A stretch of DNA of 64,000 bases, taken from the NCBI GenBank assembly GCA_028867755.1, contig JAGWFT010000001.1, positions 964,727 through 1,028,726 of the forward strand, given 5' to 3'. This DNA is from Nitrososphaerota archaeon. GTDB taxonomy: Archaea; Thermoproteota; Nitrososphaeria; Nitrososphaerales; Nitrosopumilaceae. This document shows positions 17,419 through 56,809 of this stretch, in pieces. Numbering within the stretch: the stretch's first letter is position 1; each line of letters opens with the position of its first letter. The position numbers and the translations under genes were made by a program. The notes under the pieces were generated by a model, which saw only the letters and a program-made list of their open reading frames with translations, was not told the origin of the DNA and did no database searches.

Positions 17419-17469
17419 TTTTATCACTGTAATTTAGGCCAGTTTTTCTGCAAAAATATGGCAAAAAAT

Positions 17470-17650
17470 GGGGTTTAACCTTTATTCGTACACCCAAAAG
17501 AAAAGCAAACTCTTACCTGGTAATGGGGGTGGTTTGACCTTTGACTGCCATATGCACGCTCAAGTGTTCAACCCCCCGCCAAAATCGCGTTTTTTGAAAA
17601 AATCACATCCTGCGTGATGCTAGGAAAATAAGCAGGGGTTTAACCTTTGA
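17470..17650. repeat. Array of GGGGTTTAACCTTT-type motifs in a non-coding gap
   Basis: Exact 14-mer at 17470 and 17635, variant GTGGTTTGACCTTT at 17529, inverted partial GTTCAACCCC at 17567. Confidence 0.65.
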
Positions 17651-34225: not shown

Positions 34226-34471
34226 CTTTGGTTTTTCTGTAAAATCTATCTGAACCTGTATTTCAAAACTTTTTGCAGTCTATGCCGCTATGATTACAAA
34301 CAGGCTTTTATCTGCCTGTGGAGACTTCTTGATGCCATTTTGTAATTCCAGAAAATTACATTTCACTATTGTAGTACTTTGTCACTTGAATAACGCGATA
34401 TGTTTTCAAGTGATTTCCAAAATTGGAATTTGTTATCTAGAAAATATCCTACTCTTTAAATATAATTTCAA

Positions 34472-35224
34472 ATGAATTTTTATGTAATGAGTGCACCACA
34501 AGTCAAAGTAAGAACAGGAGTGCCTGGTTTTGATTCTGTAATTTCTGGTGGATTTCGAAGGGGAAAGACCATTGTTCTATCAGGTCCTCCAGGTAGTGGG
34601 AAAACAACATTTGGAATGCAGTTTCTCTATTTTGGTGCAAAAGATTTTGACGAGCCGGGAATCTTTGTAACTCTTTCTCAGAGTCCAGATGAAATAAAAA
34701 ATGACTTCAAGTCGTTTGGATGGGATGTTCAAAAATTATTTGATGATGGAAAGATGATAATAATAGACGCGCGACCGTTTAAGATGGAAGACGGGTTTAT
34801 CGCACTAGATGAATCACTCTACAGGGGAGAGTCATTACCATTTATGCATCTCACTCAGTTGATACTAAGTAGCATAAAGCGAATAGGTGCAAAGAGATTG
34901 GTGATTGATTCTCTTACGGTGCTTGGCATGCAGTATACTAACAGCTTTTACACAAGGCGAGGACTGCAGGGAATGGTTCATACACTCGAAGACCAACAAT
35001 GTACCTCTCTATTGGTATCTGAAGAGAACAAGACAGACAAGACACCTTTTGAGTGGCACGTTGTGTCAGGTATTGTACTATTGCATCACGTAAGAAAAGA
35101 GGATACGATGGAAAGGGCAATTCAAGTGATTAAAATGCGTGGTACAAAGCACAGCGAGCAAATATTTCCAATTAAACTCACAGAATCAGGGTTGCAGATA
35201 ATTCATCCTAGGATAGTTCCCTAG
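34472..35224 (+). CDS. Single-domain KaiC/RAD55-like RecA-superfamily ATPase
   Basis: SGPPGSGKT Walker A, RLVIDSL Walker B, QVIKMRGTKH. Confidence 0.92.
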   Translation: MNFYVMSAPQVKVRTGVPGFDSVISGGFRRGKTIVLSGPPGSGKTTFGMQFLYFGAKDFDEPGIFVTLSQSPDEIKNDFKSFGWDVQKLFDDGKMIIIDARPFKMEDGFIALDESLYRGESLPFMHLTQLILSSIKRIGAKRLVIDSLTVLGMQYTNSFYTRRGLQGMVHTLEDQQCTSLLVSEENKTDKTPFEWHVVSGIVLLHHVRKEDTMERAIQVIKMRGTKHSEQIFPIKLTESGLQIIHPRIVP

Positions 35225-35226
35225 TT

Positions 35227-36081
35227 TTACAGATGTATGTTCTTAGATCCAGCCCAGATGGACTGGAATAGCATACGCATAGAGTAAATCATGGCTTCTG
35301 AGTCTGTCCATACTGCTGATATCTCTTGGTTTGATTGGCTCAAGTTCTTGATAAAGAAGACAAGCTCGCTATCATCCCTGACTATAAAACATAGGTTATC
35401 TCTCATGCTGTCAGGCATTTTTCTCACTTTGGATCTATCAATATCATCAAATATGTACATTGATTTATCCGATGTCAAGGCCAACAGCTTAAGATCAATC
35501 TGGGCTTTATCAAGTGGCTCAAAAAAGTCAGAATGATAGAACTTGAGAAAGTCTTTTTCTGAGCCCCACACAAAAAATTCTTTTTTGGCATTTGAGATCA
35601 TCTCTTTTATCTTGCTGTGAATCTGGTTTGTCCCTTGCAGCATCTGGAATTTGTTTTCTTTACTTTCAGAAGCGACATTAAATTCAGGAATGCTGTTCCA
35701 TAGGTCTACTATGTTTTTTTCTTGTTTTTCAAGTGTATTTACTCGCTCTTTTTCTGCATTTACCAAAACCCAAATTGCTTTGTTTAACGGCTCGGCAGAA
35801 AACTTGATTGGATGCTGGAATGTTGCAGAGACCAATCCTTTGTTTTGCAATGTTGTAAGCAGGTGGTATGTCTCTGTTCTGGGAAGTTTTAATGCTTTAC
35901 AAATATCTGGGGCTTTTTTTGAGCCATACTTGCCAAGAAATATGTAGACTTTGCATTGATTTGGCGTGAGCCCATACTTGGCAAGCTCATCTTTTAGCTT
36001 GTCAACTGATAACTTGTGTTCATATAATTTTGAATCTGAGACAGAGTCAAATATTGTGATTTGCGTCTCCTCATCTCTCAT
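35227..36081 (-). CDS. TrmB-family transcriptional regulator
   Basis: GLTPNQCKVYIFL...PRTETYHLLTTLQNKGLV wHTH plus C-terminal effector domain. Confidence 0.9.
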   Translation of the reverse strand: MRDEETQITIFDSVSDSKLYEHKLSVDKLKDELAKYGLTPNQCKVYIFLGKYGSKKAPDICKALKLPRTETYHLLTTLQNKGLVSATFQHPIKFSAEPLNKAIWVLVNAEKERVNTLEKQEKNIVDLWNSIPEFNVASESKENKFQMLQGTNQIHSKIKEMISNAKKEFFVWGSEKDFLKFYHSDFFEPLDKAQIDLKLLALTSDKSMYIFDDIDRSKVRKMPDSMRDNLCFIVRDDSELVFFIKNLSQSNQEISAVWTDSEAMIYSMRMLFQSIWAGSKNIHL

Positions 36082-36234
36082 TGTTCTTCACCTTGTATCT
36101 TGGTCTGATGTATTGGGGGCACGTCAAACACTGATCGACTTTGGTCATTTGTTGCCCTTTTATGTGTATACATTTTATTAAATATGATGGTTTTACATCT
36201 CATATAGTAATTTATTTTAATTTTGTTCATGAAT

Positions 36235-36777
36235 TTATATAATATTTATTTCATCTATTGGAACATCAAAGATCGATTTGAACGAGAATTTGGCTCTAGA
36301 CTGGGCTGTCTGCGTAAATGCAATCTCTGCAGGTAACTCGTGGGTTGTAAGAAAAACACATCCTAAGTCTTTTTTAAGGCCTCTGGCAACTAGGTCATCA
36401 ACTGCCTGTTTTATCTTGGTGGCTCGGTCTAACTCTGATTTTACCTGCTCTGCTGCTTTAAAGTATAATTCCAGTTCCCCTTTTAACCCGATTCCGTCAA
36501 ATATTGATATTGAATCAAGATTGTACCAGTTATTTTTTTGATCTTTTTTCTTGACGCTTTTTTTCTTTTTTGGGTCGTTTGTGACACCTTCTATTTTTTG
36601 TCGCATATCTTGCAATTCAGCTGAATTTGTAGAATCAGTTGCGCGAAGTTTTTCCCCGATTAATCCTGATAGCTCGCCTGATCGGTTCTTTAATTGCCCT
36701 ATGTTGCTATCTAGCATCTGCTGTAATTCGGTTATAGTTCTAAACGACTTGATTTTTTCTTGTGTCATCTGGCTCAA
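36235..36777 (-). CDS. Hypothetical protein in pilus-linked operon
   Basis: 180 aa, coiled-coil, overlaps the upstream gene by 4 bp. Confidence 0.75.
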   Translation of the reverse strand: MSQMTQEKIKSFRTITELQQMLDSNIGQLKNRSGELSGLIGEKLRATDSTNSAELQDMRQKIEGVTNDPKKKKSVKKKDQKNNWYNLDSISIFDGIGLKGELELYFKAAEQVKSELDRATKIKQAVDDLVARGLKKDLGCVFLTTHELPAEIAFTQTAQSRAKFSFKSIFDVPIDEINII

Positions 36778-37265
36778 ACTTTTCCTATCTGGGCTGCTGA
36801 CGTATCCATTGTTATTGCATCATCTGAGCTTGAGCTTGGTATTCGTTTTAGCTTCTTGGCGCCTTCCTTTAAGAAAGATATCTTTTTGTTCTTTATTTCT
36901 CTGTCAGTTCTTGCCATGGAGATGATGGCAGGTATTGAATATTTCAGGACATTAGCAGTTTCGTCCAGTGTGAGATGATCAAACCTCTTTGTTTCAGACT
37001 TGTAGTTTGGTTTGATGATTAGTAAATCCAAGTTTGGAGTCAAGACAATGCGAAAGTCTTCTGGTAAGCTTAAAAGTTGTGGATGCAAGTCAACAGAAAA
37101 TGAAAGATATGAAGTAATTATTTTCAAAGAGTTGTACAAGTCGTCTATGATGTTTACTTTTTCCTTGTCTATTTCATATACCTGAACAGCTTCGTCTACT
37201 AGGTCCTCCATGGCCTTTACTGCTGCTGCTAAATTTTCATCACTTGCGTTTGCTTCTGAGGGCAT
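36774..37265 (-). CDS. Hypothetical protein in pilus-linked operon
   Basis: 163 aa, ATG, operonic. Confidence 0.75.
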   Translation of the reverse strand: MPSEANASDENLAAAVKAMEDLVDEAVQVYEIDKEKVNIIDDLYNSLKIITSYLSFSVDLHPQLLSLPEDFRIVLTPNLDLLIIKPNYKSETKRFDHLTLDETANVLKYSIPAIISMARTDREIKNKKISFLKEGAKKLKRIPSSSSDDAITMDTSAAQIGKV

Positions 37266-37354
37266 TACCCAAAAAATGGCTTTTTTATATAAAGAATATG
37301 TGTATGTAAGTTAAAGTTACAACAGAGAACTGAATTTTTGTGTTGCCCAAAATA

Positions 37355-39850
37355 TTACGTTACCCTTACCACGCCAATATACTGGGTCACAAAGAATGGC
37401 TCGCCCTTTTGGTCATATCCACTTAGAAACGCGTACATTCTATAGCGTCCAGGAGTAATGTCTCCGTTTGCGTTCTGTGAAGGAGTTAATGCTGGAGGGC
37501 TAAAACAAACAGATAGCGTAGAGCCAACAGTAAAAATCGAACTATCTGTTAGTTGTTCATGAGGGTTTCCGCCAAATCCACAGTTCACCGACCCATATGC
37601 CTGGCTCGCATCAATGGTTTCAAATGTCACTCTAGTATTGTCTGTAAGCCATGCAGCATTAGGCCCAGGGTTGTAAACGTAGACATTTCCGTCTTGGCCG
37701 TGCTGATAAGTATAGTATGCAGGAAATGGTGTATCTGGATGTGGAACTTGAAGCATTGAGTTTGACTGTCCTGTGATTGCCGAGTTGTCAATTTCTAGCT
37801 TCATTGGGAGCTGTCCATTATTGAGTTGACTGACAAAGGTCATCTGAAGCTGCAACCTCTGGTTTGCTGTGAGTGTAACCTGTGGTAATGCGATAGAGTA
37901 ATTGTATTGCCCCCATGTATTGCTTGGATTAGAATAGGCACCAAATGAATCTGCAAAATTCATTGCAAAGCTTGAGCTTGTTGCAAGGTTCCCATTAGAT
38001 ACCAGATTACCATTTTGATCTACTATGTTTATTACAAAATTGATCTTGTGTGCTGCTGTACCGTAGTTTGTTTTATACAAATCAGCTATCTGGTTTGTAG
38101 GTGATGTTGTCAAAGCAACACTGTTCCAGTGAATCAAGTCATCTAGATAACCTGTAAAATAATTTATGCCGCTTGAGCTGTCATCTCGACCTACAGACCA
38201 TTTACTAGAAGGGTGGGAGTTACAATTAGAACATGAAACCCCTCCATTGGTTGCCTTTTGAACTCCGTCTACATATAGTGTGCACGTATCTGTACTGCCA
38301 GCATATGATCTTACAGCAATGAAATGATGCCAATTGCCATCATTGTAGGCATTTGCAGTAGGAGTTTCACAACTTATGACAGGGCTTAGATTTGACTTGC
38401 CAGCATATCTGAATAATAATTTGCCTGCATTTGCGCCGTTATCCAGTCCTATCTCATAAAATGGCTGCGAATCACCATTAGAACCAATTCGAAATATTAC
38501 CTGTCTTGCAGACGAGCTGGTCTTAAACCACCCAGATGTGGAATCTGTAGAACCCATATCGTTAACGCCTCCTTTTATGCTGGCGTCCATGTATTGTGAG
38601 TTGGCACCGTTAAAAAAACACCCCCCAGAGCCATACTGTCCATTTGCAGAAGTACACGTTGGTTTAGCACTATTGCTACCCAAAGTAAGCGCGTGGCCTG
38701 CATCAACATTTCCTGTAGACTCGGCAGCAGTAGTTGCTAGCGGCCCATCCTCAAAATGATAAATCATCATGTTGTTGTTTGTGGGCAGTGTTGTTGCAAC
38801 TGGGCTGCTCAAGTATCGAAGCGTAGCATTCCATTTTCCTGCATTCATGTCAATTGTTATGGTGTCATTGTTGGTGTAGAAATTCTGCGTTCCAGCAGTA
38901 TCCATCTGGATTATTTTTCCTCTAGTGTCAGCTGCTACAGAATGCATTTCATATCCATTTAGGGCATCTGTAGTTTCCTGATGTAAAATTAATTGGCTGT
39001 CATCAACACTAACTGCAGAAAGTCCGCTTGTGGTAAGAGACGTTTGGCTCTGAGTAGCGCTTGGAACCTGGGAGATGTTGACAACCGAGAGAGCATAATT
39101 TCCTTGATGTGCGTTCTGAATAGTTGCGTTGAATTCCTCTGAAGATCCAATCTCACCTGACAAGGTGCATGTCCATTGGAAAAGTGCCGTTTCACCGTTT
39201 TGTATTGTTGTATAAGATGGCGGTGCGGCAGTTGGCGGACAACTGGGCGTTGCTCCACCTGAAATAAAATTCAACACAGGAGTAACATTTGTCATTATTG
39301 CATTATTTGACATGTTGTTTGTTACCGCTAAAATTACTGTTGTGCTAAATCCATCTGGGACAATATTTGGAGTTGTAAAAAGTTGTATGGATATGGGTGC
39401 AGAAGCTGCCGAGTTTATGGTAAACTGTTGTTCATTGCCTCTTGATGTTACCAGTTTGATATTGTATTGATTTGAAGGATTGACGTAAACAGGTATGTTT
39501 TGTCCTATGTTAGTTAGTGTACTGCTAGGCACTACAAGCGTGCTGCTTGGTGTATAGCTGTAAACCCAATCAGTCTTTGACATGTTTTGAACCCATATTT
39601 TTGTAAAGTTGATTGGAAGAGTGCCAGTGTTTGCAACAGTTATGTTAAGCTTAGAGCCTGAAACCTCGACGTTAGAAATCTGAAATTTCTCTTTATTGGT
39701 ATCTAATAACTGCTGATTTTTTCCCAACACTGATTGGTTGTATCCATTTAGAATATTCATGCTATAGGTAATGTAAGTTACTGTACTTGTGAGTGCAATT
39801 ATGGCAAACACGGCTCCTACCACAGTAGATAGCGCTCTTCGGGATTTCAT
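37355..39850 (-). CDS. Class III signal peptide (pilin-like) adhesin with LamG/concanavalin-A-like domain
   Basis: MKSRRA|LSTVVGAVFAII; YHFEDG, STSGWFKT, DGNWHHFIAV, LYVDG, VGRD..YFTGYLDDL LamG motifs. Confidence 0.85.
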   Translation of the reverse strand: MKSRRALSTVVGAVFAIIALTSTVTYITYSMNILNGYNQSVLGKNQQLLDTNKEKFQISNVEVSGSKLNITVANTGTLPINFTKIWVQNMSKTDWVYSYTPSSTLVVPSSTLTNIGQNIPVYVNPSNQYNIKLVTSRGNEQQFTINSAASAPISIQLFTTPNIVPDGFSTTVILAVTNNMSNNAIMTNVTPVLNFISGGATPSCPPTAAPPSYTTIQNGETALFQWTCTLSGEIGSSEEFNATIQNAHQGNYALSVVNISQVPSATQSQTSLTTSGLSAVSVDDSQLILHQETTDALNGYEMHSVAADTRGKIIQMDTAGTQNFYTNNDTITIDMNAGKWNATLRYLSSPVATTLPTNNNMMIYHFEDGPLATTAAESTGNVDAGHALTLGSNSAKPTCTSANGQYGSGGCFFNGANSQYMDASIKGGVNDMGSTDSTSGWFKTSSSARQVIFRIGSNGDSQPFYEIGLDNGANAGKLLFRYAGKSNLSPVISCETPTANAYNDGNWHHFIAVRSYAGSTDTCTLYVDGVQKATNGGVSCSNCNSHPSSKWSVGRDDSSSGINYFTGYLDDLIHWNSVALTTSPTNQIADLYKTNYGTAAHKINFVINIVDQNGNLVSNGNLATSSSFAMNFADSFGAYSNPSNTWGQYNYSIALPQVTLTANQRLQLQMTFVSQLNNGQLPMKLEIDNSAITGQSNSMLQVPHPDTPFPAYYTYQHGQDGNVYVYNPGPNAAWLTDNTRVTFETIDASQAYGSVNCGFGGNPHEQLTDSSIFTVGSTLSVCFSPPALTPSQNANGDITPGRYRMYAFLSGYDQKGEPFFVTQYIGVVRVT

Positions 39851-40332
39851 GGTGGGGCTGCCTGCGTTGTAAGTGTGGTTCCTCTTTGAGTTGTAATGGT
39901 AATAGTGTCTGCACTCTTGCTCTTCCAGACTGCATTGGCAGAAAGTTTTGCTGATATGGTATACGATGCTTGCTGATTTATTGTGGCAGGCAAGGCTGTA
40001 GACATGGATAGGTAGCTGCTTATGGCCGTACTATTGACCTGCATACTAGTTATCTTTGCAGCTACTGTGCCAGTGTTTGTTAGCGTCACATTTATGATGT
40101 TTTTTGAGTTTGCTGAACCACAATTAGTACAAAATGCTACGTTTTCTATATTCAAATTTTCATTTATCTTGTTGGTCATATTTGATGAAGTGTTTATCAA
40201 TGAAGTTTCAAATGTCTTGAGATTTCCATTTGACCATGCAACTATTGAGCTGCCCAACACGGCAACACTTGTTAACAATATTGCTGTAGTGATAACACTA
40301 CTAAGACCCCTGTGAGCTCTAACAAACTTCAT
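39847..40332 (-). CDS. Archaeal type IV pilin (class III signal peptide)
   Basis: RAHRG|LSSVITTAILLTSVAVLG; INITLTNTG-like C-domain, ITTQRG. Confidence 0.88.
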   Translation of the reverse strand: MKFVRAHRGLSSVITTAILLTSVAVLGSSIVAWSNGNLKTFETSLINTSSNMTNKINENLNIENVAFCTNCGSANSKNIINVTLTNTGTVAAKITSMQVNSTAISSYLSMSTALPATINQQASYTISAKLSANAVWKSKSADTITITTQRGTTLTTQAAPP

Positions 40333-40379
40333 ACATGTTTTCTTTGATTTATTCTGTCTTGGCGTGGTACTGTATGTGG

Positions 40380-40904
40380 CTAGATTGAATTTACACTCGC
40401 CTCACTTATGATCTCTTTTGGCAAAGGCTGGATTCCAGCCATTTGTTCTGCAATAATGTCATTTTCAATATCTGTTGTAACTGTCTCTTCTACAGGCTCT
40501 GGTATCTTGGAAGCTTCTTCTTGTTTTGTTTCTACTTGAGGTGCAGACGATATCTGTGATAGCTTGTAGGCAGGGCATGGAATTTGCACGCTCTTTGAGA
40601 CTACATAAATTAAAGGAAAGATTTCTTGATATATCGTATTTACAATTAATGGTATGTTTTTTTGATCAGGTTCAAGATGTTTTGATATCTCGATATCATC
40701 CCCGCAAAGAGAGGCAATACCTTCTACGGATAATTTTGTATTTGTAGGGTTTGAAAGCAAGGTAAATTTGTATTTTAATTTGATTCCAAACTCGTTGTTT
40801 TCTATCTCATCTACTGATACATCAATGTCATATTTGATGAAATCATCATGGAAATTTTTTAATTTGTTTACTGTAAACGCTGTTATCTCTATACTTGGAT
40901 GCAT
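40380..40904 (-). CDS. Arcadin-1-like / SecB-fold-like hypothetical protein
   Basis: Alternating beta-strand pattern KYKFTLLSNP..KLSVEGIASL.G then helix IYQEIFPLIYVVSK..IP.P; recognised from memory only. Confidence 0.5.
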   Translation of the reverse strand: MHPSIEITAFTVNKLKNFHDDFIKYDIDVSVDEIENNEFGIKLKYKFTLLSNPTNTKLSVEGIASLCGDDIEISKHLEPDQKNIPLIVNTIYQEIFPLIYVVSKSVQIPCPAYKLSQISSAPQVETKQEEASKIPEPVEETVTTDIENDIIAEQMAGIQPLPKEIISEASVNSI

Positions 40905-40999
40905 TTGATCCGTATATTGAATAGATCCAGACTTAAGCCCCTGTCTGTAGCGCCATAATACATATCATACAATTAACGACTCTTCATAATACCAATTTT

Positions 41000-42010
41000 G
41001 TGAGTAATTTAGAAGAGGTCAGTCATAGGGTAAAAGAGACAAACGCTTCAAAAGTTGTAAATGAAAATTTCAATCTCAATATCACAATATCAAAACTAAA
41101 ACGAAATACGCACGCTCTTTCAAAAAACTATGATGTCAAAAAGTATCTAGACTCAAACAAATTTACTTTCTCGCCTGAAATATCAGAGCTTATTCCAAAA
41201 GACACTCCACCGTATATAGACAACGGTGAGATGTATGTAGAAAGAATTGCAAGAGCAATGGCATTTTTCAAACAATGTGCCCTAATTGGTCCTAGCGGTA
41301 CTGGAAAGACACACATTGTATATTTTGTGGCAGAGCTTGCTGGGCTACCCTTGTGGGAGATAAATTGTGGTCTGCAAACCTCAGTTTTTGATCTTTTTGG
41401 TAGATATGTAGGCCTTGGAAAAGAGAACTGGATAGATGGCCTTATCACACTGTGGTGCAGGCATGGCGGAATTTTGTACCTTGATGAGGCCAATATGATG
41501 AAACAAGATATTGCAACCAGGCTTAACCCTATCTTAGATCAGCGTGGGCACATGGTACTGACTGAAAAAGACAATGAAATCATACAACGTCACAATGATG
41601 CTTTTCTTATAATCAGCATGAATCCAGTGTCATCAGAATTTGCAGGAACAAAACCAATTAATGCTGCAATGAGGAGGCGCATGAGTGTCTGGCTGAACTT
41701 TGATTACATGAGTGTAGGAAATAAAATTGATGAGAAAGAAATTGATTTGCTAGAGAAAAAAACTGGCATTGATAGAAAAAATGCAGAAAGAATAATACGA
41801 ATTGGTGCAGAACTACGAGAACGATACAAAAGAGGCGAACTTCCGTATGGACCGTCTATTGGGGACCTGATAAACTGGGCAAAACTGGTATCAGATGGCA
41901 CAGCTTTGAAGAGTGCAGGAGAAGAAACTATAATTGCACTTACAAGCGATGATCCTGAAATTCAAGAGATTGTAAGAAAGATAGTTCACAAAAATGCCGA
42001 TAGCCTATGA
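41000..42010 (+). CDS. CbbQ/NirQ/NorQ-type MoxR AAA+ ATPase
   Basis: GPSGTGKT, LYLDEAN, SMNP, AAMRRR, C-terminal PSIGDLINWA. Confidence 0.9.
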   Translation: MSNLEEVSHRVKETNASKVVNENFNLNITISKLKRNTHALSKNYDVKKYLDSNKFTFSPEISELIPKDTPPYIDNGEMYVERIARAMAFFKQCALIGPSGTGKTHIVYFVAELAGLPLWEINCGLQTSVFDLFGRYVGLGKENWIDGLITLWCRHGGILYLDEANMMKQDIATRLNPILDQRGHMVLTEKDNEIIQRHNDAFLIISMNPVSSEFAGTKPINAAMRRRMSVWLNFDYMSVGNKIDEKEIDLLEKKTGIDRKNAERIIRIGAELRERYKRGELPYGPSIGDLINWAKLVSDGTALKSAGEETIIALTSDDPEIQEIVRKIVHKNADSL

Positions 42011-43560
42011 GAAGCGAAGAGAATTTTTATGAGTATGTCTGCAGACTGTTTTATGACTTTTCTCACACAATGCCAGACGATGTTGGCCTAGTTCTTTCCA
42101 AAAAAACAGTTTATCCGCTTTTGGAGGTTGGCTCTAACCTTCATGTTGTTTTACCATTGCCAAGAATTATTGGGGATAAATACGCGTTTGAAGGAATGCT
42201 TTTTGAAAACACCATAGATGGAAAGAAAAGTCTTTGGATTCTTTTTTTGTTCACATTGTATCATCTAGCAGCACATGTAGCTATATCTGATTATCAAAAA
42301 TACAAGGAATGGCAAAAAGACAAGACTGAAGATGCAAGTTGGCTTGTAATTGACTTTATTGAGGATATTCGAGTGGCCCGATACATAGAACGTGCAGATG
42401 CAGAAATCTGGAAAAACATGTGTTTGGTTGAAAAACAGTTTGACGATTATCTTGAAAGAAGACGATCAAATAATGCTTGCAAGCAAACCCCATACGAAAT
42501 AGTAGAGGAAGAAAAGATTCGTAGCTATTTAAAGGCTAGAGCGGTAGATGGCAAGGCATCTAATGATCATGACACCATGGCAGATCTTCTATATCATAAT
42601 CGTAATTTACTCGATTTTTTCCCACGGCCTTATCATGAGCGTCATAAATCTACATGGTTGATAAAATTTGAAGATAAGGCCCCTGGGCTCTTATCATCTG
42701 AAATTTTTAATGTGCGGATAACAAAACTAGATGAATTGTGGCAAGAGCATGAATATTCAAAAAACAGGTTATACCAAAGATACAAAAAATATCTCAAGAA
42801 TCTCAAGTTTGATTCAATTGTGGTGCCAACAGGTGATTTACAAGAATACCACAAAATAAAATCAAGAATTTTGCCGCTCTTAAAAAAAATCCGTCAACAG
42901 TTACGGTTACTACCTAATTTGGTTGATTCTCCCAAAACTGATCAAATGGGCTATATTGATATGCAAATGGCAATTCAAGCAATATCATCACAAGGACAGA
43001 CAACTGAGATCTTTGAGCAAGATGAACAAAGAAGAACTGAGGAGGCATGGGTGATTTTAGTGGATAAAAGTGGCAGCATGAGATTGTTATTTGATAAAAT
43101 TCAAGAATTTGTTGTGTGCATGGCAGAATCTGCAAACGAGTTAACAGGGAAATATGATGAATGGGCTCTTTTTAGCTTTGACAATAGTTTTCAAATTCTA
43201 AAGGATTTCAAAGAAAAATACAATCAAGAAGTTCAAGCAAGGATAGGTTCTATAAAACATGGAGGTATGTCATTGTTGCCTGATGCGCTTGAATTATCAA
43301 GTATGATATTAGCAGATAATCCTAGAGAAAAAAAATATATTTTTGTCATAACAGATGGTAATCCTTCTGGATATGAGAAAATTCATGCTGCTTTCTCAAA
43401 GACTGTTAAAAAGATGGAAATTTCCGGAATAACCCTGATAGCAATAGGCGTGTCAAAAGGAACCACTCGTGCTTTTAGGAACAGTGCAAGAGGAAAAAAT
43501 CTTAATCAACTTGTGGCCAAATTCATTACTGCTTACAGAACTGCCTCTGCAGGTATGTAA
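42007..43560 (+). CDS. VWA-domain protein (CbbO/NorD-like partner)
   Basis: C-terminal ILVDKSGSM MIDAS, VITDGNP; overlaps the AAA gene by 4 bp. Confidence 0.88.
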   Translation: MRSEENFYEYVCRLFYDFSHTMPDDVGLVLSKKTVYPLLEVGSNLHVVLPLPRIIGDKYAFEGMLFENTIDGKKSLWILFLFTLYHLAAHVAISDYQKYKEWQKDKTEDASWLVIDFIEDIRVARYIERADAEIWKNMCLVEKQFDDYLERRRSNNACKQTPYEIVEEEKIRSYLKARAVDGKASNDHDTMADLLYHNRNLLDFFPRPYHERHKSTWLIKFEDKAPGLLSSEIFNVRITKLDELWQEHEYSKNRLYQRYKKYLKNLKFDSIVVPTGDLQEYHKIKSRILPLLKKIRQQLRLLPNLVDSPKTDQMGYIDMQMAIQAISSQGQTTEIFEQDEQRRTEEAWVILVDKSGSMRLLFDKIQEFVVCMAESANELTGKYDEWALFSFDNSFQILKDFKEKYNQEVQARIGSIKHGGMSLLPDALELSSMILADNPREKKYIFVITDGNPSGYEKIHAAFSKTVKKMEISGITLIAIGVSKGTTRAFRNSARGKNLNQLVAKFITAYRTASAGM

Positions 43561-43593
43561 CCGTAAAAGACACACTAGATCAGATAAACTGTC

Positions 43594-43611
43594 ATTACCA
43601 TTTCTGGTAAT
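43594..43611. promoter_or_regulatory. Inverted repeat immediately 5' of the pilin start
   Basis: ATTACCA-TTTC-TGGTAAT followed by AAGGT-ATG. Confidence 0.4.
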
Positions 43612-43616
43612 AAGGT

Positions 43617-44303
43617 ATGTTCATAAAAACAAAGAACAGAAAGGCAATCAGTGCCGTGCTTACTACGCTGATTATCTTGGTGGCATCAGTAGTTCTTGGA
43701 ACAGGTGTTGTATTATTTGGTACAAGCCTTTTCCAGACAAACGCCCAATCATCGGGTCTGGCCGCCCAAGGTACTCACGTGTGGGTAAATGCAACTACCG
43801 GAATGACTAAAACCTACGTGTGGGGTGCTGCAGAAATACGAAACAGTGGAGACAAGATATTGTCTGTAGACCAGATTAGTGTTCGTGGTACTCAAATACC
43901 ATTTGCAAACTGGTACTATGACAGTAATCCAAATGACGTCACTGCCGCAAACTTCCAGTCTCAGCTTAACTATACTGGAACTGCAACAACTGCAAATCAG
44001 GTCGGTGGTGTTGTAGCAGGTGAGATGCAATCTTATGGTGCTAAGCAAAACTGTCCTACCGCAAGTGCAACCTCATTCTACATCAATGAATTTGGTTCTG
44101 CGGCAAATCCAACAAATCCAACACTGTGCTTCACACAAGCAAGTGGCCCAATCTCACTGAAGCCAGGAGGCTCAGCAATTGTGTACTTCCAAGTTCCTAC
44201 CGGAGTCTTGAGTACAGTTGATGGAGGCTCTAGCAGCAGTGTTGCAATATATGCTGGTAGCGTAGGTGCACCACAATCGGTTACTGTACAAAGCCAATCC
44301 TAG
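43617..44303 (+). CDS. Archaeal type IV pilin (probable major pilin)
   Basis: KNRKA|ISAVLTTLIILVASVVLG class III signal; IRNSGD, ISLKPG; first gene before the ATPase. Confidence 0.88.
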   Translation: MFIKTKNRKAISAVLTTLIILVASVVLGTGVVLFGTSLFQTNAQSSGLAAQGTHVWVNATTGMTKTYVWGAAEIRNSGDKILSVDQISVRGTQIPFANWYYDSNPNDVTAANFQSQLNYTGTATTANQVGGVVAGEMQSYGAKQNCPTASATSFYINEFGSAANPTNPTLCFTQASGPISLKPGGSAIVYFQVPTGVLSTVDGGSSSSVAIYAGSVGAPQSVTVQSQS

Positions 44304-44355
44304 AGGGCCAAAAAATGCCCAAACTCTTTTCTTTTTTATTTTCGGAGGATAGCAA

Positions 44356-45900
44356 ATGAAAGAGAGATCAAACCAAACCAAAGAAATTGAAAGTTTTCTG
44401 ACAAGTCAAATTATTGATGGAAATCAAAGTCATATTCCTCCAGGATATGAGGTGGTTAAAAACTATCAATTGCAACCACCGTTTAGTTATGCCAATATTT
44501 TGTATAACCAAGAAAAATCTTCATATCTCTATTTTGTAGACGAGTCTAAACTAAATCAAGACGAAACGTTGATCTTTCAAAAATTGTATAGACTCATAGA
44601 AGAAAGCCTAGAGTCGCCAACAGAACTAAAAAGTAACCAAAATTTTGATGACCACTTGAGTATGATTCTAAAAGAAAATGAAAAAATGTTTTTGGGCCAA
44701 TCAAGTGCTAGCATGGAGAAGGTAAAGTACTATCTAAAGCGAGACATCAATGGCTTTGGTGTCATAGATCCTTTGATGCATGATATTGGCATAGAAGATA
44801 TTAGCTGTAGTGGAACTGAAAAACCTATTTTTATCTGGCATAGAAATTATGATAGCATTCCAACTAACATACGATACACATCTAATGATCTTCTAAACGC
44901 GTTTGTTTCAAGAATAGTTTTCAGGGCTGGAAAACACATAAGCTCGGCATTTCCAATCTCTGATCTTGCACTGCAAGGAAACCACAGAATCTCTGTTCTT
45001 TATCAAAAAGAGGTAACTCCAAAGGGAACAAGCTTTACAATAAGAAAATTCAAGGAAGACCCTTACACTGTTATTGATTTAATCAAGTTTGGTACAATGA
45101 GCCTCCCAGTTGCCGCCTATCTGTGGATGCTGGTGGAGTCAAAAATGTCATTTATAATAATAGGCGCCACAGGCAGCGGTAAGACAACCATACTTAATGC
45201 AATTACTGGTCTGGTTCATCCCGATTACAAAATTTTTTCAGTTGAAGATGTGGCTGAAATTAACATAAATCACGAAAACTGGTTTACTCTTGTTTCAAGA
45301 AGTGGTTTTGGCCTTGGAGGCGAAGGTGAAATTGGTTTGTATGACTTGATAAAAGCTGGTGTAAGACACAGGCCTGACTATATTGTAGTGGGTGAAATTA
45401 GAGGCTCTGAGGCTTATGTCATGTTTCAGGCCATGGCGACAGGTCACGGTGGTTTGTGCACTATGCATGCAGATAGTCTAGAATCTGCAATAAAGAGATT
45501 GCAACAAAAACCAATGGATATTCCTCCGTCATACATCTCATTGATGAACTGTGCTGTAGTGATTAAAAGAGTAAAAGAAAATTCAACAGGTCAGAGTAGC
45601 AGACGAGCTATAGTTGTATCAGAAATTATTTCTTCTGATTCATCACATGCTGCTTTTTCATGGAACCCAAAGACTGATTATTTTGATGATGACCTCAAGG
45701 AGAGTATCCTGTTTAAAAGAATGGTAGCGTCAACAGGGCGTGACATGAGGGAATTATTAAAAGAACACCAACAAAGAATCTCGATTCTAAAGTGGATGCT
45801 TGAAAATGACATTCGCAATTATAAAAAAGTAGCCGAAATAGTTGGGAAATACTATAGAGACCCAGAATCTTTGATGCAGAAAATGGAAGTAGGAGTTTAA
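44356..45900 (+). CDS. Type IV pilus assembly ATPase (FlaI/TadA/VirB11 family)
   Basis: IDPLMHD..IEDISC, FTIRKF, GATGSGKTT, RHRPDYIVVGEIRG, TGHGGLCTMHA. Confidence 0.95.
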   Translation: MKERSNQTKEIESFLTSQIIDGNQSHIPPGYEVVKNYQLQPPFSYANILYNQEKSSYLYFVDESKLNQDETLIFQKLYRLIEESLESPTELKSNQNFDDHLSMILKENEKMFLGQSSASMEKVKYYLKRDINGFGVIDPLMHDIGIEDISCSGTEKPIFIWHRNYDSIPTNIRYTSNDLLNAFVSRIVFRAGKHISSAFPISDLALQGNHRISVLYQKEVTPKGTSFTIRKFKEDPYTVIDLIKFGTMSLPVAAYLWMLVESKMSFIIIGATGSGKTTILNAITGLVHPDYKIFSVEDVAEININHENWFTLVSRSGFGLGGEGEIGLYDLIKAGVRHRPDYIVVGEIRGSEAYVMFQAMATGHGGLCTMHADSLESAIKRLQQKPMDIPPSYISLMNCAVVIKRVKENSTGQSSRRAIVVSEIISSDSSHAAFSWNPKTDYFDDDLKESILFKRMVASTGRDMRELLKEHQQRISILKWMLENDIRNYKKVAEIVGKYYRDPESLMQKMEVGV

Positions 45901-47367
45901 TTGATTTTGCTTTCTTTAAAAAAACTTGACCAGGGGGATTATGAAAAGAAACAAAACAAAAAGATAGAAAGAGAACTACCATATTTCATAACACTTGTAT
46001 CCTTGCTTGCATCAAGCGGGCTGGGGCCGTATACTATTTTACAAAAGATAAAAGAAATCAATCTTTTGCCAATAATTCATGGAGAAACCATAAAGATCCT
46101 CAAACGTATTGATATGCTTGGAATAGATCCTCTCACTGCACTAAATCAGACAAAAGACAAGCCGTCCTCTAGAGCTCTCGGAGAATTTCTTGGAGGTTAT
46201 GTGTCTGCTATTCAAAGTGGTGGAAATGTAATCAATTACCTAAAAAGCAAAATGTCAAGCTCATATGATAGACTTGAGAATACAGAAAAACAGTCAGTAG
46301 AGAAACTAAGCGGTACTGTGCATGGCTGGCTAACGATGCAGATTGTTGTCTTGTCCGTGTTTATTCTAGTTGCGGCCATTGGTTCAAATCCACTAAGTTC
46401 TAACGGCGCAAGTCACCCAGAACCACCATATGCACTTTTGATTTTTTCACCTATAATTTCAATCGCATTTATGAAAATGGTTCAAAAAATGAATTATTCA
46501 AACATTCCAGAAATCGCGATAAAAAAGATATTAAAATCTACTTTGCCTCCCTTTCTTGTAGGACTAGTACTGATTGCAAGCAACCTGCTTTCAGACTTGA
46601 ATGCTAATGCTTACATTTTGGGTGGTTCCTTGGTGATTGGTTCTTTATGGCTAGCAATTAAATTCAAAAAAATTTATGTTGCAAATCTACATGCAGAAGC
46701 TGCAACGCCACAAATTCTCCGAGATATCACAGAGGCAAGAAAATCTGGTATGGGACCTGAAAAATGTATCATACATGCTTGCAAGAGAAAAGATTTCAGA
46801 TCATTTAACATTGTTGCAAATACCATAGCAAACAAGCTTGAATGGGGTATTCCATTATCTAACATTTTTGAAACACTTCATAAAGAAGTCAAGAATTTCC
46901 AAGTATTAATTACTTTTAGAATATTGTTTGAAATCATCTCTTCTGGTGGGGGTAATGTCAATACACTTGATTCATTAGCTGATGCTAGTGAAAAGATCCA
47001 CGACATTTCAAAAACCAAGCGTGATATGCTTCAGCCATACGTGATAGTTGGTTTTATGGTAATTGTAATTACTGGATTTACCACTCTGTTAACAATAGAC
47101 TCTTTTGCAGACATTGATAAAGAAAAAAATCTAGTCCACAACGATAATGCACAAACATCTAGCATGCCAAATTCCTTACTTGATGTTGTTTCTATTGCTG
47201 TAATTGTACAAGCATGGTTAGCTGGACTTTTCATCGGAAAAATAACAAAGGGTGCCTATTCTGGAGGGTTCATGTATTCGATGCTACTTACTATAATTAG
47301 CATGGTTGCTATAGGAATGATCCAACTCCATGTGATAAACATAGGCTCTATTCTCCAACCATCCTAA
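45901..47367 (+). CDS. Type IV pilus membrane platform protein (TadC/FlaJ-like, two T2SSF domains)
   Basis: ELPYFITLVSLLASSG, GIDPLTAL, SAIQSGG; second domain GIPLS..., SSGGG. Confidence 0.9.
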   Translation: MILLSLKKLDQGDYEKKQNKKIERELPYFITLVSLLASSGLGPYTILQKIKEINLLPIIHGETIKILKRIDMLGIDPLTALNQTKDKPSSRALGEFLGGYVSAIQSGGNVINYLKSKMSSSYDRLENTEKQSVEKLSGTVHGWLTMQIVVLSVFILVAAIGSNPLSSNGASHPEPPYALLIFSPIISIAFMKMVQKMNYSNIPEIAIKKILKSTLPPFLVGLVLIASNLLSDLNANAYILGGSLVIGSLWLAIKFKKIYVANLHAEAATPQILRDITEARKSGMGPEKCIIHACKRKDFRSFNIVANTIANKLEWGIPLSNIFETLHKEVKNFQVLITFRILFEIISSGGGNVNTLDSLADASEKIHDISKTKRDMLQPYVIVGFMVIVITGFTTLLTIDSFADIDKEKNLVHNDNAQTSSMPNSLLDVVSIAVIVQAWLAGLFIGKITKGAYSGGFMYSMLLTIISMVAIGMIQLHVINIGSILQPS

Positions 47368-47410
47368 TGAGTATGTCACGAAAAAAGTCATACCGCCTCT
47401 TATATCATCT

Positions 47411-50107
47411 TTGAAGATACATATGAATAATTTGAGATACATAGCAGTAGCCTCGCTAATTGTTTTGGCAATTCTTCCACATTATGTATTTGCTGACAAT
47501 GGTAACCAGCTTGATACTACACTAATACCAAATAAAATAATTGCAAACACTGATGGTATAATTCAGGTCTACCCAAAAAGTTTTGGTAGCACAATTAGCA
47601 GTATGGTAGCTACATCATCTGATTCTTCAATAGTGCGGATTCTAGATGTAGGAAAAGATGTCTCTCATGATATTTTTAATGTAAAGATTAAGGCATTGAA
47701 CTCAGGTCAGGCAACAATTAACATGGCAGCATCAGGTTTTGCCTCTCTAGAGTTGCCAGTTACCATCTATCCAGATTCTAAAGGAGCCACGAATCTTTTA
47801 ATCAAAGCAACTCCGAAAACTTTTTCAACGTCAGGACCAAATACTGGTTATATTTCTGTAGAAACCGTCAACGCTGATGGGGTTCCGACTCCTGCATCTG
47901 TTGATACTCCAATAAAACTAAGTGTATCAGATAGTAGCATTGCAGGACTGGCCGATGATCAAATGATGATAAAACAAGGTTCATACTTTGCCATGGAAAA
48001 ATTTGCCATAGCAAAGCCTGGCAGTGTTCAAATATATGCATCTGCACCTTCAATGCAGCCTGTATCAGCATCAGTCACGATTAATAATGAGGCTGTACCG
48101 TACACACTCCAAGTTTACGCATATCCGCCAATAGTTAATGTCAATAAAGATGCAGTGTCGTATGTAATAGTCCAATTACATGACTCTGCAGGAAATCCAG
48201 TTATAGCAAAAAATGATATTCATGTATCAGTTAGTGTCGTAAATCCTGTAGACACAACATCAGTTAACACAAGCGGTCAAAGTCCATCTGTGCAGGTAAA
48301 CGATGGTTTTGTTATACAAAAGGGCTCTTACTGGGGATATGTTCCTGTTGAATTTACTGCTGGTGTGAATGCAACGTATAATGTAAATATTTCAGCTAAA
48401 GGTTACGTAATTAGTACAATTCCTGCTAGTACAACAGTTACAACTAGTACTACAGCTACTACTGGCACAACAGTGCCTGGTGGTGGAACATCTACTAGTG
48501 GTACAACAACTACCACTAGTACGACATCTACTAGTGGTACAACAACTACCACTAGTACGACATCTACTAGTGGTACAACAACCAGCGGTACGACAACTGC
48601 AACTGGTACAACAACTGCAAGTAGCACATTGGCCTCAATTTGTACATCAAATCCAATTTCAACCTCAGAGTCACAAGTACAAATTGCTGCTGTCGCACAA
48701 AATTTTGTTATGGATGACAAGACACCATGCTTTTACCCTCTTCCAATTCTTACAACAGGCAACACAGAGTTAATTGGAGTTTTAGCTTTGAAAGACTCAT
48801 CAGGTTATCCAGTGCTTGCAAAATCAGATCTATCATTTAGAATGGATTCGTCTGATGTGTCTACAGTTTCTGTACCAGGCGTGGAAATGGGGTATGGGTC
48901 TCAATCTGCCCTTGTCTTTGCTCAAATTGGCAATGCTGCCAATCCAGTAACACTAAATGTTGTTTCAGACAGTCCTCAGCAGGTAATGCCAGTCATGGCA
49001 TCTCCCTCTCAGGTGACATCAGGTTTGGTGGCTGATTCATTACTTCCAACTGTTTTGCCAAATACGCAATTCCCACTGGCGATTTACGCTACAAATAATG
49101 GCGCTCTCGGCACATTTAAGAACGATTTTACTGCCTTGATCTCTCCACAAGAAACAATCTCGCCTATACAATTGACCGTTACAAAAGGTGATCCGATATT
49201 TCTTACCGACGAAACATTGCTTGAAGGCGGCCCCCAAAATATTGCAATCACAACACCAGATTACTCATCCAATTTCATTGTGACAGGGGCATCATCAAAA
49301 CCAAATGGTATTGTACTTGGTTATCCAGATCAAATTTTTTCAAATAGTAATTTATTGTTTTCAATCGAGTTGTTGGATGATAAACAACTCCCAATACTGG
49401 CTGACAAAGATACTGATATCAAACTAGTTTCAAGTGATCCGTCTGTACTTGATGTGCCAGATAATGTGCAGATAAAGAAAGGTACCTATTATGCAACACT
49501 TGATGCTCACTCCAATTCGTCTGGCACTGCAGAGATTGCAGTACTTGCAGATGAAATACCTCTATCAAAATTTGATGTGCCAGTTACAAGCTATGCACCA
49601 GTAATAAGCATCGACTCGGCTGATCACGCGGACAATAATTCTCCACTTACAGCCACTGTGACAGCTACCTACAATCAATTACCTCTTGCAGGTCTTAATG
49701 TGGATTGGTCGGTAACAGGTGCAACAACAAAGAACGCCGATACCATTACAGACAAAGAAGGTAAAGCAACCATCTCGTTAATCACAAACGATCCTAGTAC
49801 AGTTAGTATAGAGGCAGGCGTTGGAGGAGGACCATATCAAACTGTTACAGTCGATAAGCAAGTCAGTATCAATCCGCCATTGCAGCCTCTCATCTCAACA
49901 GGCCAATCTGGGCAATCTAATTCACAGTCATCTGGTTTTACAGTAATGGGTGTTAGTCCTCTTTTGTTTATTATTCCAGGTGCAGCAGCTGCTGCATTTG
50001 TAGTTTTAAAAAAGAAACAAATGCTAGATGGAATTACCGAAAAAATCAACATTACAGATAGATTTTCAGAAATAAAAGAAAGAATGATGGACTCTGGCCA
50101 ACGATAA
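47411..50107 (+). CDS. Large secreted surface protein with Ig-like repeats, Thr/Ser-rich linker and C-terminal membrane anchor
   Basis: Signal peptide, repeated VQLxDxxGxP / LxSSDxxV motifs, TDKEGKA, C-terminal TM followed by KKK. Confidence 0.85.
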   Translation: MKIHMNNLRYIAVASLIVLAILPHYVFADNGNQLDTTLIPNKIIANTDGIIQVYPKSFGSTISSMVATSSDSSIVRILDVGKDVSHDIFNVKIKALNSGQATINMAASGFASLELPVTIYPDSKGATNLLIKATPKTFSTSGPNTGYISVETVNADGVPTPASVDTPIKLSVSDSSIAGLADDQMMIKQGSYFAMEKFAIAKPGSVQIYASAPSMQPVSASVTINNEAVPYTLQVYAYPPIVNVNKDAVSYVIVQLHDSAGNPVIAKNDIHVSVSVVNPVDTTSVNTSGQSPSVQVNDGFVIQKGSYWGYVPVEFTAGVNATYNVNISAKGYVISTIPASTTVTTSTTATTGTTVPGGGTSTSGTTTTTSTTSTSGTTTTTSTTSTSGTTTSGTTTATGTTTASSTLASICTSNPISTSESQVQIAAVAQNFVMDDKTPCFYPLPILTTGNTELIGVLALKDSSGYPVLAKSDLSFRMDSSDVSTVSVPGVEMGYGSQSALVFAQIGNAANPVTLNVVSDSPQQVMPVMASPSQVTSGLVADSLLPTVLPNTQFPLAIYATNNGALGTFKNDFTALISPQETISPIQLTVTKGDPIFLTDETLLEGGPQNIAITTPDYSSNFIVTGASSKPNGIVLGYPDQIFSNSNLLFSIELLDDKQLPILADKDTDIKLVSSDPSVLDVPDNVQIKKGTYYATLDAHSNSSGTAEIAVLADEIPLSKFDVPVTSYAPVISIDSADHADNNSPLTATVTATYNQLPLAGLNVDWSVTGATTKNADTITDKEGKATISLITNDPSTVSIEAGVGGGPYQTVTVDKQVSINPPLQPLISTGQSGQSNSQSSGFTVMGVSPLLFIIPGAAAAAFVVLKKKQMLDGITEKINITDRFSEIKERMMDSGQR
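48488..48582 (+). repeat. 36-bp coding tandem repeat x2.6 (TSTSGTTTTTST)
   Basis: ACATCTACTAGTGGTACAACAACTACCACTAGTACG at 48488 and 48524, partial at 48560. Confidence 0.92.
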
Positions 50108-50108
50108 T

Positions 50109-50357
50109 TTATGATTTTATGAAGGTTATGACATTGGATAAATGCGATACAAATGACTTGCCTACTTGTTCATTTCTGCTTAGCATAAACAGCGAGAAGA
50201 ATCCTTCAAAGAAAGTCAAAATACTTTGCAAAAGATTTTGGTGAAAGAGTTGAAGTGTAGTAGAAATCACAACGACAGTAGCAGCTACAAGTACTATCAA
50301 ATAGTAAAGTGTATACCACTTAGTTTTAGGGTCATGAAAAGACGAGAAAAATCTCAT
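50109..50357 (-). CDS. Small membrane protein
   Basis: 82 aa, 2 hydrophobic segments. Confidence 0.55.
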   Translation of the reverse strand: MRFFSSFHDPKTKWYTLYYLIVLVAATVVVISTTLQLFHQNLLQSILTFFEGFFSLFMLSRNEQVGKSFVSHLSNVITFIKS

Positions 50358-50431
50358 GAGAGAATTTCATGGTTTCCAAAATATAAGATTTGTCTACCAA
50401 TTTTGGAAATGGAACAAGGATCTAGTGTAGT

Positions 50432-51130
50432 ATGTTAATTGAAAATTTGGATCTTAACACTGTGAGAATTATCACAGCTTTGGGTATGCTTGGAATTGCA
50501 TCTTTTTTAGACATACGAAAAAGGGAGATAAATGATATTGTATGGATTGGATTTGGAGCCATTGCGTGTGTATTTGTCTTTTTCAGTGATAATTTCTGGT
50601 TGACAATCAAGACATTAGGTTTGTCGATGATAATAGTTCCTATCGCGCTTTTCATATGGCGTCTTGGTATTTTTGGGGGGGCTGATGCTTTTTGTCTTAT
50701 AGTTCTTGGCGCCTTGGTCCCCATGGCATCAATACAAAGCTCTGAGATAACTCCATTTACAACACTCACTAATGCTGCAATAATCTCTATTGTTCCGCTA
50801 TTTGTAAATCTCAGTCGAAATCTAGTTGCCATGGCAAAAAGAGAAGATATCTTTAATGGCATAGATGAGACAAGATTAACTAAACTTGTGGCACTTTTTG
50901 TTGGTCATAGGGCAAAGAACACAAAATATGGATTTTCAATGGAAAGGATTGAAGGAAACCAAAAAAGGCTTGATTTTGGATTTAGGCATGCAGAAAAGAC
51001 ACAGTTTTGTAATGCATCCACGACATGGATTACCCCTGCAATACCGTATATCCTTTACATATCTGGCGGATTTGCGATTCAGATAATTTATGGTGATGTT
51101 ATCGTCAATTTGATTAAAAGTATCCACTGA
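50432..51130 (+). CDS. Prepilin peptidase (A24, PibD/FlaK-like)
   Basis: SFLDIRKREI and GGADAFCL aspartate motifs; TPAIPYI C-terminus. Confidence 0.92.
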   Translation: MLIENLDLNTVRIITALGMLGIASFLDIRKREINDIVWIGFGAIACVFVFFSDNFWLTIKTLGLSMIIVPIALFIWRLGIFGGADAFCLIVLGALVPMASIQSSEITPFTTLTNAAIISIVPLFVNLSRNLVAMAKREDIFNGIDETRLTKLVALFVGHRAKNTKYGFSMERIEGNQKRLDFGFRHAEKTQFCNASTTWITPAIPYILYISGGFAIQIIYGDVIVNLIKSIH

Positions 51131-56666: not shown

Positions 56667-56809
56667 ATTTTTCTTAAGTTATATTAGCATAAAAATATGT
56701 CCTGCCAAAATTGGAAATATATTTTATTATTAACTATAGCTAAGTAACAAAATAATGTGACACAGCCTAGATCAAAGAATCATATTAATTGATTTTATCA
56801 AAACTGTTT

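Follow-up and report, generated by a model that had tools for sequence, protein, structure and literature searches.

A five-gene AAA+/VWA cassette dedicated to the subclade-4A type IV pilus locus of ammonia-oxidising archaea, and its possible role in pilus assembly

We analysed a 64,000-nucleotide stretch of a Nitrososphaerota archaeon genome (assembly GCA_028867755.1, contig JAGWFT010000001.1, positions 964,727 to 1,028,726 of the forward strand; hereafter the window), in which positions 34472-51130 hold a type IV pilus locus that also encodes a MoxR-class AAA+ ATPase and a VWA protein. The genome is 1.64 Mb in size and its closest relatives are named Nitrosotalea. We find that the AAA+/VWA pair has a fixed place in the pilus locus and is not there by chance, and that together with three further proteins it makes up a five-gene cytoplasmic cassette that is dedicated to subclade-4A pilus loci and genetically coupled to them. 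We propose that the cassette acts after translation, as a chaperone for assembly or maturation that works on the pilus machinery or on its precursors, and not as a retraction motor. This is the most likely of four roles that we weighed and one we hold with even confidence; after it we rank a regulatory switch, then service to an unrelated client, and last pilus retraction.

Evidence for the coupling comes from a survey in which 121 genomes of the order were searched with both the AAA protein and the pilus ATPase. We read 28 related loci in detail, chosen for long contigs (more than ten AAA matches on short contigs were left out), and 26 of them carry an intact AAA gene on a usable contig; one unpublished genome, G108, is counted only in the AAA and ATPase search tallies, and no claim depends on it. 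The AAA orthologues share 57-81% identity, with 80-86% among the Nitrosotalea relatives, and form a group distinct from a ~30%-identical paralogue present in nearly every genome. A pilus ATPase gene lies 0.8-15 kb from the AAA orthologue in 22 of the 26 loci, and G042, G044 and G095 are also linked, from coordinates alone (0.8-3.6 kb). An earlier reading of this stretch (the original prediction) had named orthologues usually unlinked to pilus genes as the result that would count against it; they are usually linked, and the connection between AAA/VWA and pilus therefore stands.

Presence and absence follow the same pattern. Within the family, the AAA orthologue and the pilus ATPase agree in 13 of 15 genomes (six with both, seven with neither), and the orthologue is absent where the sole pilus ATPase is of a second, ~40%-identical type. 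One discordant genome, G084, keeps a split AAA gene, the VWA gene and a pilin gene, and its ATPase and TadC genes are gone (L019, G084:C1:1079529-1082733); the other, G027, retains a pilin fragment, the ATPase and TadC genes, fragments of the surface-protein gene and PibD, and has lost AAA/VWA and the left arm of the locus (L020, G027:C1:201379-207917). The pair and the pilus genes travel together and are lost together. G084 and G027 belong to one genus, and their complementary locus remnants look like a gene-loss series.

These data also bear on the view that the cassette serves an unrelated client, a metalloenzyme as for NorQD, CbbQO and CoxDE, and that its proximity to pilus genes is inherited synteny without function. 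All characterised CbbQ/NorQ-class pairs do act on enzymes, the pilus ATPase is not nearby in four of the 26 loci, and an HxxxH motif in the N-terminal domain of the VWA protein is kept in 24 of 28 sequences. Yet the linkage has outlasted extensive shuffling of gene order between families, occurrence follows that of the pilus ATPase within the family, decay takes the locus as a whole, and no candidate enzyme recurs in the neighbourhoods. As the original prediction had remarked for Rubisco and Nor targets, we found no gene for NO reductase or Rubisco either in this region of the window or in the related loci. General needs could moreover be served by a second, near-universal MoxR-VWA pair with a housekeeping context, and we regard the unrelated-client view as improbable. 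In the present genome this second pair (G000:C35, L030 5420-7782, minus strand) consists of a 265-aa MoxR protein with an AAA_5 domain and a 522-aa VWA protein, and its neighbours encode geranylgeranyl reductase, ribosomal protein S3Ae and transketolase; its AAA protein is ~32% identical to the pilus-linked one, and every family member searched has such a match.

Beyond the AAA/VWA pair, the cassette includes three proteins that we call u163, u174 and u180 and detected with hidden Markov models (HMMs) built from cross-family alignments of each. All five members occur together in 23 of the 26 loci, and in the remaining three either a contig or fetch end truncates the locus or one member is missing. 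Cassette order and strand are extensively shuffled, and membership is constant: homologues of u180, in an alignment that spans several families, lie beside AAA-VWA in nearly all loci by HMM, homologues of u163 always adjoin those of u180, and u174 is encoded beside AAA-VWA across families, mostly divergent from the AAA gene. A transmembrane (TM) scan found no signal peptide or true TM segment in any of the five and no TM segment at all in u180; the sole TM-like stretch, in the VWA N-domain, corresponds to a buried helix. No Pfam match and no credible PDB sequence match was found for u163 or u180, whose relatives in the Atlas fall in unnamed archaeal clusters only, including Bathyarchaeota. Matches of the two to designer repeats contained zero significant stretches, comparison ruled them out as paralogues of each other, and we rejected a defence system, for which PADLOC gives merely marginal P-loop matches.

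The original prediction had labelled u174 arcadin-1-like, a label that our results do not support. The AlphaFold model of u174 is confident over a core of residues 1-115 (predicted local distance difference test, pLDDT, >90), followed by an acidic, disordered C-terminal tail, and SecB leads the structural matches: Foldseek places SecB structures 1fx3 and 1qyn on top (E 1e-4), and VIA-align gives Z 9.6 for the SecB-like protein Rv1957, 8.8 for SecB and 7.9 for 2o2a, which is SecB-like and of function not known, with the next match at 5.9. The solved structure of arcadin-1, said by its authors to resemble nothing else in the PDB (PMC5173319), is not among the matches of either program, and the locus holds no actin gene. 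With SecB of E. coli and H. influenzae and Rv1957 of M. tuberculosis, the top matches of two independent aligners, the predicted fold shares a four-stranded sheet and two helices. Unlike SecB, with which its identity is ~10%, u174 belongs to a small archaeal family and has the disordered acidic tail, and a holdase role for it is putative.

The class assignment of the AAA/VWA pair, as given originally, was upheld. The AAA protein matches PF07728 AAA_5 (69 bits, E 4e-19) and PF08406 CbbQ_C (56 bits, E 3.5e-15), carries Walker A GPSGTGKT (97-104) and Walker B ILYLDE (158-163) motifs, and finds its best single-domain PDB matches in NorQ and CbbQ, at ~85 bits. A special kinship with midasin/Rea1 was rejected because the 178-bit score sums over six AAA modules, the best of which reaches 49.5 bits, below the 85 bits of NorQ/CbbQ. 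The VWA protein has an N-terminal domain, a conserved low-confidence segment (305-345) and a C-terminal VWA domain, in a predicted model of pLDDT 81.6. Its MIDAS, the adhesion site that depends on a metal ion, is intact, with D353, S355 and S357 (DKSGS, 353-357) and D450 invariant in 28 sequences. In structural comparison over ~205 residues, the VWA domain matches the MIDAS domains of MDN1/Rea1 at Z 20.7/20.2 and the VWA domain of NorD at Z 20.1, with generic VWA domains at Z 16.6 or less and ArnB (8s05_B) at 14.4; as modelled, the VWA protein is NorD/Rea1-like in structure. Segment 305-345 combines low pLDDT with a conservation of 0.57, as high as that of the VWA domain, and stands directly before the MIDAS strand, which is where the pore-inserting finger of NorD sits (mechanism templates PMC9976466, PMC13036017). 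A zincin-like N-domain was rejected: it has no Pfam match, and its HxxxH motif is not universal.

Like NorQ/NorD and CbbQ/CbbO, the present pair combines AAA_5 and CbbQ_C with adjacent, overlapping genes and an adaptor built of N-domain, linker and C-terminal VWA domain with an intact MIDAS. It differs from these systems in that AAA sequence identity to NorQ/CbbQ is merely ~30%, the AAA protein has an extra N-terminal stretch of ~65-90 residues, and three further dedicated partner proteins accompany the pair.

Some loci depart from the common form. The AAA orthologue at G246:C2:42818-43813 has an in-frame TAG and is possibly a pseudogene or a sequencing error. The VWA gene of L014 (17593-19317, G054) is in three pieces, by disruption or possibly assembly error; the G054 genome is 86% complete with 5% contamination. 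At L017 18284-19762 (G090), and in G104 and G025 of the same genus, the AAA match begins at about residue 100 inside a 432-598 aa frame with a second weak AAA-like stretch upstream, where an N-terminal duplication or fusion is possible. L021 (G029) holds three u174-like open reading frames (ORFs) by HMM, two of which were read (9679-10119 and 17112-17528), and two KaiC-like genes, with no pilus ATPase gene within 10 kb.

Our model for cassette action takes its mechanism from NorQD and CbbQO. The AAA+ protein would form a hexamer, and the VWA adaptor would plug its pore with the conserved segment that immediately precedes the MIDAS strand. A client would be gripped by the MIDAS of the adaptor and by its fast-evolving N-domain, and ATP hydrolysis would twist the adaptor so that the client is remodelled. 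The most likely client would be a pilus biogenesis component at the cytoplasmic face, either the TadC/ATPase machine or unfolded pilin and adhesin precursors held by the SecB-fold protein. We tentatively propose, at somewhat below even confidence, that the cassette is an uncharacterised ATP-driven chaperone machine dedicated to archaeal type IV pilus biogenesis, which might deliver large adhesins or pilins with class III signals to the machinery in the membrane, or might ready the TadC/ATPase complex for action or reset it.

The original prediction had also allowed that the AAA+/VWA module retracts pilus components, and in this form the cassette would replace PilT and drive pilus retraction or disassembly. 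Archaea to our knowledge lack PilT, the cassette is specific to one pilus type, and NorB is an example of a membrane protein that a MoxR/VWA machine can remodel. We found nothing to support retraction, however: nothing indicates that these pili retract, no cassette member resembles a platform-binding secretion ATPase, and MoxR rings have their adaptor as a plug and, it is believed, do not thread substrates (PMC9976466). Assembly fits the same data equally well or better, and we consider retraction very improbable, the least probable of the four roles.

A stronger competitor is that the AAA/VWA pair and its partners form a regulatory switch that acts by signalling between proteins on pilus gene expression or on pilus ATPase activity, like the ArnA/ArnB module that represses the Sulfolobus archaellum. 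ArnB, too, is a VWA protein of the cytoplasm with ties to a type IV filament, and the pilus-linked VWA protein was placed with it in arCOG02900, with an alternative regulatory pathway proposed (PMC4858521). Genes for regulators also stand beside the cassette. Of the two controllers named in the original prediction, TrmB recurs: about 20 of the 28 loci have a TrmB-family gene close to the module, and the protein here scores above cut-off for both PF01978 (45 bits) and PF11495 (31 bits). The adjacency of KaiC is a family-level trait of Nitrosopumilaceae, in which KaiC adjoins TrmB in all five same-family loci (L002-L005, L029). TrmB probably controls transcription in our model, and KaiC would be a family-level add-on. 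The KaiC-like protein has Walker A GPPGSGKT and, read by eye, SQ at the position of the catalytic EE (FVTLSQS), and it may bind ATP without hydrolysing it.

Palindromes at the KaiC, pilin and PibD promoters also speak for a switch. KaiC, the major pilin and PibD each have a TWCCA-N4-TGGWA site 20-57 nt upstream, and the KaiC site is the only perfect TTCCAA-N2-TTGGAA in the genome. Genome-wide there are 31 exact TWCCA-N4-TGGWA sites against five for a reversed control, the motif having been defined from the same three locus sites. In the 28 related loci, 10 of 120 sites fall in upstream windows, where 5.6 would be expected, and the palindrome recurs at the N. devaniterrae PibD promoter and a pilin promoter in L003 and is not conserved across families. 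Because the motif is self-defined and conservation past the closest relatives is weak, we do not regard a shared operator as established. The neighbouring sensor/NitrOD5 region has a one-mismatch copy at 56703-56716, upstream of a 75-aa ORF. The palindrome ahead of KaiC falls within a 61-aa ORF (34290-34475) that overlaps the KaiC start, contains the A/T-rich TATA-like TTTAAATATAA and is probably not a gene.

On the other side, the VWA protein is structurally nearer to motor-docked NorD and Rea1 (Z ~20) than to ArnB, and, unlike ArnB, it has an AAA+ motor for a partner. The partners of ArnB are an FHA protein and kinases, and its gene never occurs in filament loci (PMC4858521); no FHA or ArnA-like partner was seen in Pfam scans of the present locus. 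A five-protein, ATP-driven machine with a holdase-like fold also exceeds the needs of a simple switch, and the palindrome fails to persist across families. We judge the regulatory switch unlikely, though first among the alternatives to a role in assembly.

Several points weigh against an assembly chaperone dedicated to the pilus. In four of the 26 loci (G029, G254, G358, G334) the best pilus ATPase is on another contig, two of these four AAA genes being no more than 9 kb from a contig end. Because we selected loci on long contigs, and because genomes that are related do not count as independent, the tallies make the statistics look stronger than they are. Several families have AAA-VWA genes that are not co-oriented with the pilin operon, and the single divergent operon of the original prediction is overstated; in such families the pair is on the opposite strand or 3-13 kb from the pilin-ATPase-TadC operon, and co-transcription is therefore not general. 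At the present locus, the T-rich tract CTTTTCTTTTTTATTTTC appears to resemble an archaeal terminator, and together with the following GGAGG it would suggest co-transcription of AAA, VWA and pilin genes with partial read-through. As to the proteins, u174 has no sequence match to SecB (PF02556) in Pfam or NCBIfam at E<0.01, and a profile search of 1.84 billion representatives returned 235 cluster representatives of an archaeal family without reaching bacterial SecB; its modelled likeness to SecB is thus a resemblance of fold and not family membership. The VWA finger and the NorD-like N-domain are leads from a predicted model and from Atlas structure matches, in which NorD, CobT and DUF2201_N align with the N-domain at template-modelling scores of 0.4-0.5. 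Prepilin leader peptides are basic, and so are not obvious MIDAS ligands. Finally, the searchable literature past the 2016 comparative note holds no expression, interaction or phenotype data on cassette members.

The locus type and its AAA/VWA association have been known since 2016. Makarova, Koonin and Albers described the arCOG00441/arCOG02900 pair as 'strongly linked' to thaumarchaeal subclade-4A pilus loci (PMC4858521). In Nitrosopumilus sp. AR2 and N. koreensis AR1 the order given by their Table S4 is TrmB, arCOG11968, arCOG11534, pilins, the oppositely oriented arCOG05517, arCOG00441, arCOG02900, a pilin and a FlaI-like ATPase. This gene order is the same as that found here, with nothing essential differing, and the present locus is the Nitrosotalea orthologue; the original wording 'possibly undescribed' is thus not supported. 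Full-text literature searches found no later work on the AAA/VWA pair in these organisms. What we add to the main text of that study is a predicted SecB-like fold for arCOG05517, the finding that the five-gene cassette is constant in membership, and a predicted NorD/Rea1-like structure for the VWA protein.

The pilus itself is a subclade-4A type IV pilus system of ammonia-oxidising archaea, its ATPase being assigned to thaumarchaeal subclade 4A by synteny with Nitrosopumilus AR2 (Table S4 and tree of Makarova et al.). ORF calling with Pfam and NCBIfam scans found every gene of the original list in its place, and together they make up a complete non-archaellum type IV pilus gene set (Table 1). 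T2SSE, T2SSF and Peptidase_A24 matches all exceed Pfam cut-offs, and in three pilin-type proteins a basic leader is followed by a small residue at the cleavage site and then by a hydrophobic helix. The ATPase matches the FlaI model (E 3e-108, 363 bits) below its equivalog cut-off of 550 and the locus has no archaellin genes, which identifies a pilus and not an archaellum; matches to the FlaH/ArlH and FlaJ models are merely marginal.

The core pilus parts and the locus survey bear out the adhesive type originally assigned, and the pilus is likely an adhesion pilus related to the Sulfolobus Aap group. Like it, Sulfolobus Aap/Ups pili depend on PibD and have pilins with class III signals, a FlaI-like ATPase and a TadC-like platform; the present locus gives weak matches to the UpsA, UpsF, BasE and BasF models, and thaumarchaeal pilus ATPases adjoin a Sulfolobales clade in the 2016 tree (PMC4858521). 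The Sulfolobus systems, described as simple (PMC4858521), are without the MoxR/VWA cassette, and the present locus, unlike them, includes large adhesin and surface proteins. The 831-aa product earlier called a LamG adhesin keeps its class III signal, and its Laminin_G_2 match (E 7e-4, 20.5 bits) is below the Pfam cut-off of 22.9; the TM scan gives it a single N-terminal TM-like segment. In the 898-aa surface protein, TM segments were placed at 8-29 and 842-868, and the candidate major pilin gene has a tandem duplicate in relatives. What the original prediction called a divergent promoter is, more simply, the divergent intergenic region between the two arms, and promoter elements within it would be putative. 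Measured against the nearest other genus, the AAA protein (80% identity), pilus ATPase (74%) and TadC (66%) evolve slowly, whereas the VWA protein (47%), pilins (31-51%) and adhesins (41-45%) evolve fast; the adaptor's pace of change is therefore close to that of the secreted parts.

Table 1. Features of the pilus locus and its flanks, in positions of the window
Feature	Position	Strand	Evidence and remarks
Perfect palindrome TTCCAAAATTGGAA	34415-34428		44-57 nt upstream of KaiC
Single-domain KaiC-like ATPase	34472-35224	+	PF06745 E 1.5e-59; converges on TrmB
TrmB-family transcription regulator	35227-36081	-	Helix-turn-helix PF01978 E 9e-12; C-terminal domain PF11495 E 2e-7
u180, cytoplasmic cassette protein	36235-36777	-	arCOG11968 by position
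u163, cytoplasmic cassette protein	36774-37265	-	arCOG11534 by position; 4-nt overlap with u180
831-aa pilin-like adhesin candidate	37355-39850	-	Class III signal MKSRRA/LSTVV; weak LamG-like region
161-aa pilin	39847-40332	-	Class III signal; weak UpsA match; 4-nt overlap with adhesin gene
u174, predicted SecB-fold cytoplasmic protein, 174 aa	40380-40904	-	arCOG05517 by synteny; no Pfam match
Divergent intergenic region, 95 bp	40905-40999		Separates u174 and AAA genes
MoxR-class AAA+ ATPase, CbbQ/NorQ/GvpN subfamily	41000-42010	+	AAA_5 and CbbQ_C; arCOG00441
NorD-like VWA adaptor	42007-43560	+	C-terminal VWA E 4e-11; 4-nt overlap with AAA gene
Related palindrome TACCATTTCTGGTA	43596-43609		Upstream of pilin
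228-aa candidate major pilin	43617-44303	+	Class III signal MFIKTKNRKA/ISAVL; UpsA E 3e-5
T-rich tract CTTTTCTTTTTTATTTTC after pilin gene, then GGAGG ahead of ATPase start	44304-44355		Sequence
Pilus assembly ATPase, FlaI/PilB superfamily	44356-45900	+	T2SSE E 8e-37
TadC/T2SSF platform	45901-47367	+	T2SSF E 3e-14; UpsF/BasF-like; multiple TM segments
898-aa surface protein	47411-50107	+	Sec signal, Ig-like repeats (Big_1 at cut-off), Thr-rich linker, C-terminal TM anchor
82-aa small membrane protein	50109-50357	-	ORF; one TM segment; homologue in same place in L004
Related palindrome TACCAATTTTGGAA	50395-50408		Upstream of PibD
Prepilin peptidase PibD/A24	50432-51130	+	Peptidase_A24 E 5e-8 and Arc_PepC_II

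MoxR-VWA machines are widespread, and few have known clients, namely Rubisco, NO reductase, CO dehydrogenase and the chelatases. The analysis yields a sharper, testable parts list for one such machine, five cytoplasmic proteins that include a predicted SecB-fold protein and a NorD-like adaptor. If our proposal is correct, this MoxR-VWA set, firmly tied to a surface filament, would extend the known clients by a new class, beyond the maturation of metalloenzymes, and might explain how slow-growing, environmentally dominant ammonia-oxidising archaea build or control their adhesion pili.

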